Below, piece by piece: positions 47,110-52,322 of a stretch of 64,000 bases of DNA. The position numbers and the translations under genes are program-made. Positions within the stretch are counted from its first letter, which is position 1. Each line of letters starts with the position of its first letter. Below the pieces are notes generated by a model. The model was not told where the DNA came from. It was given only the letters and a program-made list of their open reading frames with translations, and ran no database searches. Source of the stretch: Holophagales bacterium (GTDB lineage Bacteria > Acidobacteriota > Thermoanaerobaculia > UBA5066); assembly GCA_016714815.1 (NCBI GenBank), contig JADKBZ010000003.1, positions 544,038 through 608,037 on the forward strand, read 5' to 3'.

Positions 47110-48312
47110 TCAGGCCAGGACCGTCTCCGCCCTCCTCATCAGCCCCGCCACGTCGACGCCGTGCGGGCAGGCGCGGTTGGCGGCGCTGAAGTCGACGGAA
47201 GAGAGGTTCCGCGCCTCGGCCGGGAGCTTCGCGAAGAGCTCGCGGGCGCGGCCCTTTTCGCCGTAGGCATCGTGGTACATGAGGTAGCGCATCGTGTCGC
47301 CGATCTTCACGTTGGCGGCCACGGCCGCGCCGCAGAGGTGGTCGCAGCCGTCGCAGGCATACGGCCGCGTCGCCATCGCGTACCGGTCGAGCGCCTCCTT
47401 CTCGGCCGAGGTGAGGGAGGTCCGGTCCAGCGCCGCGGCGATGTTCTCGCGCAGCTTCTCGAAGGAGTCCATGTTCGAGACGGCGGCCGAGATCCTCTCG
47501 TCGGCCCAGACGGCCTTGAGGACCGCCTGGTGCTTGGTCCACTTCCCGGTCTTCTCGAACTTCTGCCAGGCGTCGCGGAAGCCGGCTTCCGCACCCTGCG
47601 TCTTCATCGCGATGAGGCCGACGCCCGCCTTGTGCGCGGCGTCGATGGCGGCGTTGAGCTCCTTGTCGCCGTAGCTGCGGAAGTTGTACCGGAACATGAC
47701 CGACTCGACCCACGGAGTCTTCGCCGCCAGGTGGAGGAGCTCCACGACGTTGCCACCGTGGCAGGAGAAGCCGAAGTGGCGGATCTTCCCGGCCTTCTTC
47801 AGGCGGGAGACGGTGACGGCGAGGTCGTCGCTCACGTACTTCGCGTCGTCGAGGCCGTGGAGGTAGTAGAGGTCGACGTAGTCCGACTGGAGCTGCTCGA
47901 GGCTCCGGAAGACCGTCTGCTCGAACGCCTTCGGGTCGTGCTTGTCGCTCTTGGACGTCACCCAGAACTTGTCGCGGTTCTTCGCGCGGGCGAAGTAGGC
48001 CGCCAGCCCCGCCTCCGAGCTCCCGCCGAGGTAGCAGTCGGCCGCGTCGACGTAGTTCACGCCGAATCGGACCGCTTCGGCGATCTTCGGGTCGAACTTC
48101 TTCTCGAGCGCCATGCCGCCGAGAAGGAGGATGGGAACGGACTTGCCCGTCTTCCCGAGAGTCCGGCGCGGCACCTGCGGGAGAGGGGCCTCCTCGGCCT
48201 CGGCGAGGCGCGAGGGAAGGCCGAGGCCGCCGACGAGCGCCGCGCCCGCGGCCGCGCCGCCGAGGCCGAAGAGGTCCCGTCTCGTGATGCCGTTCGCTTC
48301 GTTCTTCGCCAT
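47110..48312 (-). CDS. Tat-exported aldo/keto reductase
   Basis: Twin-arginine signal [18 protein letters not shown]; AKR fold pattern ([29 protein letters not shown]). Confidence 0.8.
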
Positions 48313-48341
48313 GTCGTTCTCCTTGCGAGCCGCTCGAGGGG

Positions 48342-50096
48342 TCAGGCGGATTTCTTTCCGGTGAGGAGGAGGGTCCGGTCTCCGTCCCGCGTCTCGCCGA
48401 CCGCCGTGACGTAGACGGCCGCGTCGTCGATGACCGGGCACTCCTTCTGGCAGATGCCGCAGCCGATGCAGAGCTCCGGCCGCATGTAGGGCTTGTTGAG
48501 GGTGACCGACTTCCCGTCCCAGCGCGTGAAGACCTCGTCGTAGGTGCCGATCGCCTTCGGCGTCGTCGGGCAGACTTCCTCGCAGACGACGCACGGCGTC
48601 TCCATCGCCCACGGGAGGCACCGCCCGCGGTCGAAGAACGCGGTGCCGAGCCGGACCGGACCGACTTCGGCGAAGGCGCCGAGCCCGAGCTTCTTCTCGA
48701 GGCTCGTCTTCTGGATCGCGCCCGTCGGGCAGACCTCGCTGCAGAGCGTGCAGTTGAGCTGGCAGAAGCCGACCGAGAAGTCCATCACCGGCGTCCAGAG
48801 CCCCTCGAGCCCCGCGACGGCGAGCCTGGCGGGCTGGAGGACGTTCGTCGGGCAGACGTTGAGGCACTGGTCGCACTTGATGCAGCGCTCGAGGAACTCG
48901 CTCTCGGCCACCGAGCCGGGGGGGCGGATCGCCTTCGGGTGGAAGCCCCGCCGGTTCACGTCCTTCGAGTAGCGCAGGAACGGGTAGGCGAGGACCCCCA
49001 GGGCGGCGGTGAGGATCCAGCGCCGCCGCGGGACGTCGGGGGCCTTCACCTCGACGCCGAGGTTCTTCGAGATCACCGGCAGGCCGTGGAGGGTCGCCGT
49101 TCCGTCCTTCGGGCTTCCCTTCACGAGCCGCGAGATCGACGGCAGCGGGTTGAACCGGAAACTCAGGGCGTCTTCCGGGCAGTCGTCGATGCAGTTGAAG
49201 CAGACGAAGCACTCGCTCTTGCGGAGGGCGCCCTGCGGGTCCGACGCGCCTTCGCACCCCTTGAGGCAGAGGTCGCAGTCCGTGCACTTCGTGACGTCGC
49301 GGTCGATCCGCCAGAGCGACCAGCGCGAGAGGACGCCGAGGAACGCCCCGAGGGGGCAGAGGACCCGGCAGAAGAAGCGCGGGACGAGGAGGTTCGCGCC
49401 GACGAGCCCGACGAGGAGCGCCCCGACGAACCAGGCCCCCGCGAAGACGCGGGGCTCCGGGGCCGCCGGCTTGAAGACGAGATTGGAGGCCGCGGAGAGC
49501 CCCTGTCCCGCGAGGGAGACGAGGCCGAGGTCGACGGCCGGAATGATCGCCACCGTGAACGTCCGGACGAGAAGGCAGATCGGGTCGAGGAGCCCGATCT
49601 GGAGAGCCCCGCAGAGCGCCAGGACGAGGAAGAGGCCGAGGAGGACGTACTTCGTCTGGTAGAGCGGCCGGTACCTGTTCTGGTCGATCCGGTTCTTGTT
49701 GTTGCGAATATTGAAGAGCCAGCCGGTGAACTGGTGGAGCGTCCCGTACGGGCAGGCCCAGTTGCAGAAGACGCGGCCGAGGAGAAGCGTCGGGACGAGG
49801 AGGAAGAGCGCCCACCAGAGCCGCCGGTAGACGGTGTGCGTCGAGAGCGCCGTGGCGAAGGAGACGAGCGGGTCGACCTCGAGGAAGAGCGAGGCGGGAT
49901 AGCCCTTCAGCCGGCTGAGCCAGGTGACCGAAAGGAGGAAGACGAAGAGGGCAAAGAAGAAGAGCTGGGAGACGACCCGGACGTTCGTGATCCGGAAGGT
50001 CCGCGCCCACCACGGCGAGCCGTCGGGGTTCGGCGCGAGGCTCGGCCGGAAGGAAGGGAGAGGGAGGCCGCTGCCCGATTTCGGCGAAGCGCTCAT
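48342..50096 (-). CDS. Membrane polyferredoxin of the NapH/MauN/CcoG family (two CX3CP motifs plus multiple 4Fe-4S ferredoxin motifs)
   Basis: TM helices with FCNWACPYG and CRVLCPLG, then at least six CxxCxxCxxxCP-type clusters. ATGA overlap with the DUF362 gene. Confidence 0.8.
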
Positions 50097-51103
50097 CCGA
50101 CCTGGATCTCCCTCACGTTCGTCGACCGCCAGTCGGGCGTTCCGAGACCGCGCGCGGCGGCCTTCTCGAAGTAGGCGGGAAGCAGCTCGCCCTTGCGCTC
50201 GAGGAGCTCGTCCCACCCGAAGGCGTCGGCGGCGAGCGAGTCGGTCGAGGCGATGAGCGTCCTCCCCTCCTTCACGTCCGAAAGGCTCCCGCCCGTCGGT
50301 CCGCTCCGCCAGAGGACGCGCGTTCCGTCGAGGACGACGAACGTCGGCCGGAGCATCAGGGCGAGGTCCGCGATGATCCCGTGGATGTCCTGGTGGAACT
50401 GGTTGCGGCGGCCGCCGAGGAGGCCGTACCAGTTCTTCGTCGTCATCGACGCGCGGCAGAGGTTGTGGTCCTTCACCGGCGCGACGCCGATCACCTTCGT
50501 CACCCCCTGGAAGGGACGCCAGAAGAAGGGCCAGCGGGCGATGTGCGTGGCGCCGGGGGTCTCGAGCATCCGGAAGTCCGAGGCCGTCGGGAGATAGACC
50601 TCCGAGCCCGCGTCGACGGCGGCACGCTGGACGCCGCTTCGGGCGAAGCAGGCCGCGGGCGACTCGATCGGGTTGTCGGCAACGCGCACCTCGGCCGCCC
50701 CCGCCTCGCGGCAGAGCCTGACGAGTGCGGCGACGACCTCGGGGTTCGACGTCGCGCCGAGAGGGGCCGACCGCTCGAAGGCGACGTTCGGCTTGACGAG
50801 GACGACGTCGCCCGTCTTCACGAAGCGATGAATCCCGCCGATGGCGTCGACGGCCGCCTTCAGCATCGCGTCGACGTTCGCCCCGCGGGCCACGCCGAGG
50901 TGCGGCAGGACGCCCGACGGATCGACGGCGAAGCCCTTTTCAGGGAGGCGGAGGGAGGTGCCGCGCGGCTTGCCCCGCTCTCCGTCGGGGTCCTTCAGCG
51001 ACAGGGGCCAGCCGGACGGGGCGAGGGAGACGTAGCCGGCTCCGAGGGAGAGCCCCGCCACCGCGCCGAGCTGCTTGAGGAGGCGCCTCCGGTCCTCATT
51101 CAT
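50093..51103 (-). CDS. Tat-exported DUF362-domain protein
   Basis: Twin-arginine signal [20 protein letters not shown]; the rest matches my recollection of DUF362 (VLVKPNV..., VKDHNLC...). Confidence 0.65.
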
Positions 51104-52322
51104 CGGCGTCCCCTTTCGCGGCGGTGGGTGGGCCGGCCGCGGCCTTCTTCGCGACGTCGGGAGACAGGGCGAGGACCGCCCTCTCCAGCTTCGCGAGCGC
51201 TTCGGCCGCCTTCGCGACCTCCGGGGCGCCGCGGACACCGACGACGAACGTCCCGGCGGCTTTCGCACGCGAGAAGGCTCCCAGGTAGCGGTCCTTGATC
51301 CACGGCTCCCCCGCCACGACGGCCTTCTCGCCGTAGCTCAGGAACCCCTTCTCGAACTGCGCGGAGAGCGCCTTCGCCTTCCCTTCGTCTCCCGCGGGGA
51401 GGACGAAGAGCTCCGTCTCGCCGTCGTCGAGCGTCGCGGAGGAGACGTTCCTCGCAAAGCCGAACGAGAAGGCGCTCTCGGCGGTGTACTGGAGGCGGTC
51501 GGGCGGGAGGCCGAGGGCGTCGCCGAAGAGGGCGACCGTCCAGGGCTTCTCGCCGGCGGCGATCCCCCCTTCGAACGTCTTCCGAAGATGCTCCAGCTGC
51601 GCGACGACGGCGGGCGACTCGTCGGAGCCGATCGCTCGGACGTAGCTCGCTCCGCGCGCGACGAAGAGGGCATTGCGCGCGACGTACCAAGACGTGCCGC
51701 CGCCGCTCTTCGGTTTCGCCTCCGGGGTCTTCTCGGCGGAGAAGGCGCCGAGGGCGTTCTCGGGAGAGCCGAGGTCGTAGAGCTCGACGTCGACCACGGC
51801 GCCGGCCGGCCCGGAGAGGGTGACGAACGTGAGCGAACGGAACCCCCGCGCGAGGAAGAAGTCGGCGCGCCCGTTGATCTTCACGTAGAGGTTCTCGGCG
51901 TCGAAGCGGGCGAGCGGCCCCTCGCTCCACCCCTTTCCGGCGAGCGCGGCGGGAAGGACCCCGCGGTCGGGCGCGACGGGGAGGTTGCCGCGATCGGGCG
52001 CGACCGGCGGGACGGACGGGACGGCGTCGGGAGCCGATCGGGCTGGAGCCGCGGAGAGAGCGACCGGGGCCTCGGCCGGAGCGGTCGGAGTGGCCGGATC
52101 GGCGACGAGCGACGGGTCGGGGTGCGCCCCGCGCCAGGCGACCCACGCGGCGACGAGGGCGAGGAGGACGACGACCGCGGCCCCCGCCTTCGCCTCAGTC
52201 ACGGAGTACGTCTTGCGGAAGACCCGGAACGGGCGCGGGTTGAGGACGCGACGCTCGCTCGCGTCGAGGCCGGGGGGTGCGCTGCGAGCCGGGGCCGCTC
52301 CCATGGGCGGGCAGCGTAGCAC
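51096..52322 (-). CDS. Hypothetical membrane-anchored, probably periplasmic, protein (first gene of the redox cluster)
   Basis: Single N-terminal TM ([18 protein letters not shown]), Pro/Ala-rich linker, about 280-aa globular domain with no recognisable motif. Start (52322 or 52304) uncertain. Confidence 0.5.

Follow-up and report, generated by a model that had tools for sequence, protein, structure and literature searches.

A four-gene cassette linking a polyferredoxin of the dual Sec-Tat type to a DUF362 protein and an exported aldo/keto reductase: a probable periplasm-facing redox complex

The polyferredoxin PFD of the delta proteobacterium MLMS-1 (Q1NSB0) is a polytopic NapH-NapG fusion that needs both the Sec and the twin-arginine translocation (Tat) pathways for its assembly: Tat inserts the fifth transmembrane segment, which Sec releases (Tooke et al., 2017; eLife 6:e26577). 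Tat-dependent translocation of the C-terminal domain was shown solely for the MLMS-1 protein, through reporter fusions, and the study, which lists homologues including one from Latescibacteria, covers biogenesis only and describes neither the function nor the partner proteins of the polyferredoxin (Tooke et al., 2017). Here we describe a polyferredoxin of this kind in a 64,000-nucleotide stretch of a Holophagales (Acidobacteriota) genome (contig JADKBZ010000003.1; hereafter “the window”), where it is the third gene of a minus-strand cassette that also encodes a DUF6599 protein, a DUF362 protein and an aldo/keto reductase (AKR). We consider it likely that the four proteins form a single membrane-bound redox complex that faces the periplasm and is connected with the quinone pool, a reading that accounts best for the data because the parts are complementary and strictly co-inherited. 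The features of the cassette, called from an open reading frame (ORF) listing together with inspection of start sites, are given below.

52304..51096, minus strand: DUF6599 protein, 402 residues (Pfam PF20244, E = 1.6e-27); the leading gene in 50 cassette loci.
51096..51103, minus strand: overlap of the DUF6599 stop with the DUF362 start, 8 nucleotides, ATGAATGA, read directly.
51103..50093, minus strand: DUF362 protein, 336 residues (Pfam PF04015, E = 4.9e-39).
50093..50096, minus strand: overlap of the DUF362 stop with the polyferredoxin start, ATGA, read directly.
50096..48342, minus strand: polyferredoxin, 584 residues (Pfam: two Fer4_5 and many Fer4 matches).
48963..49034, minus strand: within the polyferredoxin, the internal twin arginines and the fifth (Tat-type) transmembrane segment (residues 355-378; DVPRRRW), with basic residues after it.
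48313..48341, minus strand: spacer of 29 nucleotides between polyferredoxin and AKR, with an AAGGAG ribosome-binding site 7 nucleotides before the AKR ATG, read directly.
48312..47110, minus strand: AKR, 400 residues (PF00248 Aldo_ket_red, E = 7.5e-23).
47164..47355, minus strand: C-terminal Cys motif of the AKR, C320-x2-C323-x3-C327...C382-P383, with all four Cys and P383 invariant in an alignment of 22 AKR sequences (alignment A1).

Conservation of the cassette was assessed in a scan of one genome per species, which returned at least 571 relatives of the AKR; the best 80 loci were analyzed by searching hidden Markov models of the four proteins against all ORFs. The first-pass annotation of this DNA had named synteny in relatives beforehand as the test of functional coupling, and synteny was found: the full cassette, identical in order and strand, is present in 50 of the 80 loci, 11 more are consistent with it and interrupted by a contig end, and in seven the upstream sequence was too short to judge. 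The hosts, all of them metagenome-assembled genomes (MAGs), belong to at least eight phyla, including Acidobacteriota, Myxococcota, Gemmatimonadota, Eisenbacteria, Krumholzibacteriia, Latescibacterota, Verrucomicrobia and Lentisphaerae. The order DUF6599-DUF362-polyferredoxin-AKR is likewise seen between unrelated flanks in three annotated contigs, from Haliangium, an Eisenbacteria chromosome and an unclassified MAG. Clustering of the flanking ORFs of the 50 cassette loci and 12 loci with an AKR alone revealed no fifth conserved gene, and nothing beyond chance or close relationship; an adjoining methyltransferase, present in two of the three annotated loci, was considered as a member of the cassette and rejected, as it was not general in this clustering. 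Mean pairwise identity across 35 loci is highest for the polyferredoxin (0.74), followed by DUF362 (0.69), the AKR (0.59) and DUF6599 (0.43). Two of the MAG contigs with a cassette (L071 and L080) are labelled Rickettsiales and Enterobacterales, yet carry Myxococcota-like sequences, and these labels are probably binning or labelling errors.

Tight coupling of four minus-strand genes had been proposed from the sequence of the window alone. All four genes are present and the ATGA at 50093-50096 is exact; the ATGA previously assigned to 51096-51103 is instead the longer overlap listed above, and the AKR gene does not overlap its neighbour. The -4 ATGA overlap between DUF362 and polyferredoxin recurs in 19 of 35 related loci, and the idea of a translationally coupled operon holds, given overlaps in the window and in relatives and synteny across phyla. 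An exact-sequence look-up of the window AKR returned no record; the protein is 100% identical to proteins of Holophagales (Acidobacteriota) MAGs.

The polyferredoxin consists of two halves. Residues 1 to about 320 make up a NapH-like membrane part with two CX3CP motifs (C111/115 and C243/247) and two predicted cytoplasmic [4Fe-4S] motifs (CX2CX2CX3C groups C271-281 and C296-306), and the NapG-like part contains four further 4-Cys groups, at 405-415, 445-456, 493-509 and 543-553. Cys mapping thus confirms the two CX3CP motifs and the at least six ferredoxin-type clusters expected from the first reading of the sequence, the total being six 4-Cys groups. Hydropathy analysis indicates four strongly hydrophobic segments (residues 39-57, 93-111, 151-169 and 220-238) and one weakly hydrophobic segment, the fifth, with a Kyte-Doolittle mean of 0.88 as against 1.9-2.5 for the other four. 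In NCBIfam, the N-terminal half matches NapH/MauN (TIGR02163, 9e-21) and the C-terminal half NapG (PRK09476, 1.2e-24 over residues 366-564), with scores far under the equivalog cut-offs (NapG 86.9 bits vs. 269; NapH 70.9 bits vs. 234); weak matches to NosR and MauM/NapG were also obtained. The layout of a P-[RK]-RRW motif, a weakly hydrophobic fifth transmembrane segment and downstream basic residues is the same in 48 of 48 polyferredoxin orthologues. Judged by these sequence features, the protein is a NapH-NapG fusion of the published dual Sec-Tat polytopic type, to which we assign it because the twin-arginine motif, the weak fifth segment and the basic residues are the features that were demonstrated experimentally to bring about dual Sec-Tat insertion in this protein type.

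The likeness to the MLMS-1 protein comprises the NapH-like N-terminal membrane part, the twin arginines directly before the last, weakly hydrophobic segment with basic residues following, and a NapG-like domain at the C-terminus whose four [4Fe-4S] motifs lie outside the membrane, a location that is predicted for the window protein. It extends to host range, in that a Latescibacteria homologue was published and the cassette is likewise found in Latescibacterota. The two proteins differ in cluster number, the MLMS-1 protein having seven clusters, three of them cytoplasmic, and the window protein six by motif, two of them cytoplasmic, as compared with the published description. The halves also resemble NapGH and NosGH in domain content and predicted topology, i.e., in the design of an Fe-S wire leading from the membrane to a periplasmic reductase. 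However, in the window the NapH- and NapG-like parts are fused in one polypeptide that scores below the equivalog cut-offs, and the partners are an AKR and DUF362 instead of NapC/NapAB or NosZ. No nap or nos genes were found in the window neighbourhood, nor nap genes in three fully annotated relatives, which together with the scores rules out a Nap or Nos accessory locus. The initial assignment to a NapH/CcoG type was right as to a membrane-bound, NapH-like protein; CcoG is ruled out, the documented family matches being NapH and NapG, and the NapG half, the internal twin arginines and the fifth, Tat-type helix have to be added to the description.

Both the AKR and the DUF362 protein had been proposed to carry Tat signals; the twin-arginine motifs of both are conserved throughout their families and are not chance occurrences. 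The AKR signal peptide (residues 1-39, nucleotides 48196-48312) contains TRRDLF, a Gly/Ala-rich hydrophobic region and a predicted cleavage site after AEA, followed by EE. Of the 120 best AKR homologues, 116 have paired arginines among their first 40 residues, usually in the form [ST]RRxLL, and every one of the 75 AKR orthologues taken from related loci has twin arginines followed by two hydrophobic residues; the AxA-type site of the AKR signal peptide precedes the conserved LPQVPRR start of the barrel. With the TIGR01409 Tat-signal model (cut-off 16.7 bits), the AKR N-terminus scores 16.5 bits, just under the threshold, and that of DUF362 scores 18.0 bits. The DUF362 signal (residues 1-29, nucleotides 51017-51103; DRRRLLK) retains RRxFLKQAG in orthologues, and twin arginines with two hydrophobic residues are found in 42 of 48 of these, the other six having uncertain start calls. 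It has no clear AxA cleavage site: “SLAP” is followed by Pro/Trp, and the conserved stretch lacks AxA in orthologues as well. Since this site is missing, the signal may serve as an uncleaved anchor by which the DUF362 protein remains attached to the membrane.

The AKR belongs to the (α/β)8 barrel family, and its tetrad D89-Y94-K121-H152, aligned to that of 6kik and 5dan, is invariant in alignment A1, as is C93, which adjoins the catalytic Tyr94; C184 is present in 21 of the 22 sequences. In both the barrel and the Asp-Tyr-Lys-His tetrad it resembles canonical AKRs such as the 2,5-diketo-D-gluconate reductases and L-galactose dehydrogenase. It differs from them in its Tat signal and C-terminal four-Cys domain, and in the replacement of nicotinamide and pyrophosphate contacts, with C93 and C184 predicted to lie in the pocket. 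Profile alignment to canonical AKR structures places C184 at the carboxamide-binding Asn of β5, S/A204 at the Gln of β6 and M236 at the stacking aromatic residue (Tyr) of β7 among the NADPH-contact positions; the Ser-Pro-Leu(-Arg) loop is absent, the β8 Lys is replaced by H/N280, and the β5 Ser is retained. The canonical NAD(P)H-binding signature is therefore not matched at the level of sequence alignment, where another mode of NAD(P) binding is possible. We infer a remodelled nicotinamide pocket and an enzyme that is unlikely to use NAD(P)H in the normal way, and the CX2CX3C...CP motif probably binds a single [4Fe-4S] cluster. The first-pass annotation had noted that AKRs are normally cytoplasmic NAD(P)H enzymes and had called a Tat-exported one with a NapH-like electron donor unusual. 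Export is supported, and the enzyme type is likely to be different; the Cys motif and the replaced NADPH contacts account better for an exported AKR that is paired with an Fe-S donor.

Export of an AKR, called unusual in the first reading, is not a peculiarity of this locus. A search of the full library yielded 199 clusters at 50% identity that match the AKR at E ≤ 1e-30, and a Tat-like N-terminus is present in 74, and the CX2CX3C motif in 70, of 88 full-length family members, many of which lie in other gene contexts. The Tat-AKRs that stand outside a cassette (loci L058, L068, L018, L043, L054, L062, L066, L077, L082, L023, L044 and L072) retain the Tat signal and CX2CX3C...CP, and most are without the Cys beside the catalytic Tyr.

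The DUF362 orthologues are about 70% identical across phyla, with invariant K104, N106, D143, E147, C152, K211-D212-H213-N214, C216, K223, R232-R233, H237, H241 and an SGPTGG loop. The invariant His/Cys/Asp set suggests a metal or metal-organic cofactor. DUF362 shares Pfam clan CL0471 with DUF2088, the N-terminal family of the lactate racemase LarA, an enzyme with a nickel-pincer nucleotide; sequence and Foldseek searches, however, gave no link from the window protein to LarA structures. By analogy, Tat export would suit a DUF362 cofactor assembled in the cytoplasm. DUF362 domains have been reported as often fused to Fe-S domains, and as fused to CBM9 and dockerins in lignocellulose-degrading communities. 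In line with the initial statement that the family has no established function, none was found in the literature searched.

The first gene, earlier described as encoding a membrane-anchored hypothetical protein, does encode a membrane-anchored protein and is here recognized as DUF6599, a core member of the cassette. According to hydropathy, a basic N-terminus and a single transmembrane helix (residues 38-56) are followed by a predicted periplasmic α/β domain; the PF20244 match covers profile positions 3-182 of 186, and no Cys or His is conserved in an alignment of 30 sequences (alignment A3). Searches of the PDB by sequence and profile were empty for both DUF6599 and DUF362. The AlphaFold2 model of DUF6599 shows a well-predicted α/β domain (predicted local distance difference test, pLDDT, 85.6), for which Foldseek returned weak matches only, with low TM-scores, to TP0453, the PknH sensor, TiME and RseB/MucB. 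These matches hint at a periplasmic ligand-binding fold of a sensor- or lipid-binding-like kind.

In the arrangement we favor, Sec would insert the NapH-like helices of the polyferredoxin and Tat its last helix, with two [4Fe-4S] clusters on the cytoplasmic side and the NapG-like domain with its four in the periplasm. The polyferredoxin, a wire without a catalytic site, would link the periplasm to the quinone pool and perhaps also to a donor in the cytoplasm. The AKR and DUF362 proteins would be exported by Tat in folded form with their cofactors and dock on the periplasmic wire: the AKR-fold enzyme would bring its own C-terminal [4Fe-4S] cluster as entry or exit point, an acid/base tetrad and a remodelled pocket with two Cys, while DUF362 would be the second catalytic partner, with a probable metal site. 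DUF6599 could be a non-redox, membrane-anchored periplasmic subunit, either a scaffold or a substrate-binding partner. By analogy with NapGH, NosGH and MsrPQ, electrons would flow from quinol to the periplasm, where the target might be a fairly high-potential substrate of the periplasm or envelope, such as a quinone, an α-dicarbonyl or another activated electrophile. Our confidence that such a complex works in this reductase direction, with electrons passing outward from quinol, falls a little short of even.

Precedents exist for several parts of this design. The glucose-fructose oxidoreductase (GFOR) of Zymomonas is a Tat-exported enzyme with tightly bound NADP and thus an example of the export of a nicotinamide-bound oxidoreductase, and PaoABC of E. 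coli is one of periplasmic aldehyde detoxification; both differ from the proteins described here, to which they are unrelated in fold and cofactors, and neither has a membrane partner of the NapH type. In MsrPQ (YedYZ), a dedicated membrane protein passes electrons from the quinone pool to a Tat-exported cofactor enzyme, a mode of supply that would be fitting for the cassette enzymes because the periplasm is without NAD(P)H, and this system has also been used as a parallel case for the polyferredoxin (Tooke et al., 2017; eLife 6:e26577). MsrPQ nevertheless relies on heme b and molybdopterin chemistry and has no sequence relation to the window proteins.

A number of observations weigh against the arrangement, or against its reductase direction. 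In 12 of the 80 loci the AKR occurs without the other three genes; at least two of these are second copies in genomes that have a full cassette as well (L058/L052 and L068/L049), and in ten no cassette was identifiable elsewhere in the same genome. More distant Tat-AKRs (35-45% identity; L091 5830-9206, L085/L086, L087/L088) have no adjoining polyferredoxin either. Since Tat-AKRs are found elsewhere without it, the AKR can work without an adjacent polyferredoxin. Among these distant relatives, one lies directly behind a GH3 glycosidase gene, with Ldh_2 and MR_MLE (enolase-superfamily) genes close by; another comes after the gene for an outer-membrane channel of FadL type (Toluene_X), a third after those for a TRAP (DctM) transporter and a second AKR that has no signal, and a fourth lies in a housekeeping context. 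Such surroundings suggest periplasmic sugar or organic-acid chemistry in the wider family and hint at oxidation of these compounds over reduction. As to cofactors, the C-terminal 100 residues of the AKR match no Fe-S family in Pfam, Fer4 being absent even at E ≤ 10, and because the Cys tail has no Pfam match the type of its cluster is deduced from the Cys spacing; the motif could bind Zn instead. The AlphaFold2 model of DUF362 has a pLDDT of 71.7 with low confidence in the conserved loops, and a Foldseek search of the PDB with this model gave no significant neighbour and did not recover LarA. On the chemical side, reduction of ordinary aldehydes or ketones is doubtful, as it would be uphill from menaquinol, and quinol-driven carbonyl reduction is for this reason feasible solely for activated substrates such as quinones and α-dicarbonyls. 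Nor does the arrangement account for the way in which Fe-S clusters, as one-electron carriers, would power carbonyl chemistry that needs two electrons.

On the direction of electron flow the evidence is divided, the precedent of the NapH family favoring quinol to periplasm, and thermodynamics together with the sugar-linked contexts of paralogues favoring substrate to quinone. The same complex might accordingly run in reverse, as a periplasmic dehydrogenase in which the AKR and/or DUF362 oxidize a sugar, sugar acid, alcohol or aldehyde and the electrons enter the quinone pool through the polyferredoxin Fe-S chain to feed respiration. Besides the glycosidase and transporter contexts just described, this agrees with the CBM9 and dockerin fusions of DUF362, with the action of LarA-clan enzymes on 2-hydroxy acids and sugar acids, and with the L-galactose dehydrogenases among the PDB sequence neighbours of the AKR; low-potential ferredoxin-type clusters would also suit a downhill flow from sugars or aldehydes to menaquinone. 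However, the sugar-linked contexts are those of paralogues without a polyferredoxin, and to our knowledge characterized NapH-family proteins (NapH, NosH, NosR, PceC) deliver electrons outward to reductases, whereas the periplasmic dehydrogenases known to us rely on cytochrome b or NrfD-type anchors. We regard the reverse direction as unlikely.

It is less easy to reconcile the data with a polyferredoxin that serves maintenance or maturation, keeping the cofactors of DUF362 and/or the AKR reduced or aiding their assembly in the manner of CcoG, MauM/MauN and NosR, while the exported enzymes carry out a non-redox or self-contained reaction, e.g., LarA-like epimerization or dismutation on a bound nicotinamide. 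The NapH family does include accessory and activation proteins, CcoG reducing metal for cofactor insertion, and the weak NCBIfam matches to NosR and MauM/NapG point the same way, as do the overall redox-neutral chemistry of the LarA clan, the Tat-AKRs found without a polyferredoxin and the tightly bound NADP of the exported Zymomonas GFOR. Nevertheless, the 74% identity of a wire with six clusters, together with the strict 1:1:1:1 make-up of the cassette, is more in keeping with a stoichiometric catalytic complex, and the putative cluster of the AKR itself is placed as an entry point, which makes a maintenance role improbable. Very improbable, in our estimate, is that the genes are merely co-transcribed and encode periplasmic or envelope proteins of independent function, with non-functional Tat or Cys motifs. 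The sub-threshold TIGR01409 score of the AKR, the missing AxA site of DUF362 and the AKR tail without a Pfam Fe-S match would fit such independence; against it stand the order, strand and coupling retained across phyla with no further conserved neighbour, the twin arginines in 75 of 75 AKR and 48 of 48 polyferredoxin orthologues, and the complementarity of a wire without a catalytic site and enzymes without a soluble periplasmic reductant.

What was already known is the polyferredoxin type and the general design of a membrane quinol module with a Tat-exported periplasmic enzyme. In the literature searched we found no description of the cassette, of its set of partners or of an AKR in the Fe-S/Tat form, and nothing on DUF6599, Tat-exported AKRs, the function of COG1453 or this combination of four genes. 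Several literature matches for “DUF362” in fact concerned DUF3623, DUF3627 and similar names, and a discussion of NapH in ANME and a Geobacter AKR proved unrelated to the cassette.

The cassette would give context to DUF362, a large family, to DUF6599 and to a polyferredoxin known so far solely for its protein targeting. It is strongly conserved in abundant, poorly cultured phyla of soil, sediment and wastewater (Acidobacteriota, Myxococcota, Gemmatimonadota and FCB candidate phyla), and may be a common, unrecognized branch of electron-transport chains or of envelope stress defence. A further-reaching and somewhat unlikely possibility is a new class of respiratory or detoxifying complex, in which an AKR barrel without free NAD(P)H is driven by a quinone-linked [4Fe-4S] chain together with a Tat-exported DUF362 metalloenzyme, and in which the two active-site cysteines or another cofactor would convert one-electron to two-electron chemistry. 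If true, this would provide the first physiological role for DUF362, DUF6599 and the polyferredoxin of Tooke et al. (2017), show AKR-type chemistry in a compartment without NAD(P)H, and add, with the Fe-S-driven AKR, a new type of cofactor use to a fold that has been studied very thoroughly.

The neighbours of the cassette in the window have no functional relation to it; they encode a Ser/Thr kinase, a transglutaminase-like protein, a methyltransferase of the RsmE type, a giant surface protein and an acyltransferase resembling LpxL. Just upstream of the cassette, at 52458-57545 on the minus strand, lies the gene for a Thr/Gly/Ser/Ala-rich repeat protein of 1695 residues, which has a signal-like segment at its N-terminus, matches no Pfam family and is probably a giant surface or adhesin-like protein. 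Between its stop and the cassette one further feature was read directly from the sequence.

52381..52412, minus strand: GC-rich hairpin GGGCCCCC..GGGGGCCC followed by TTCGTCTTT (T-run), just past the stop of the 1695-residue gene.

This hairpin is probably a terminator that makes the cassette its own transcription unit, a call that is tentative because a consensus terminator scan missed it. On the other side, a gene for an LpxL/HtrB-type lipid A acyltransferase (46127-46990, minus strand) begins 119 nucleotides downstream of the AKR; no terminator was recognized in the intervening sequence, and the gene may be co-transcribed with the cassette in this genome. It is not kept beside the cassette in other genomes. 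Farther along the minus strand follow a membrane-associated Ser/Thr kinase with a GAF domain (43135-45702) and a protein with DUF3857 and a transglutaminase core (41031-43172), neither with an apparent link to the cassette.

The G+C content of the window is about 70%, and on both strands between 43000 and 57000 very long spurious ORFs run antisense or out of frame over the real genes, such as one of 967 residues at 47110-50013 and one of 1498 residues at 52413-56909. They arise from the high G+C content, and ORF length alone is therefore misleading in this region. At 58588-63999 (plus strand), three long ORFs in a row (607, 656 and more than 539 residues) have a coding-like G+C content at third codon positions and no Pfam match. 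At 33893-37264 (plus strand), a large M14 carboxypeptidase with CarboxypepD_reg, SprB-repeat and MAM-like domains is encoded, probably a secreted or surface protease.

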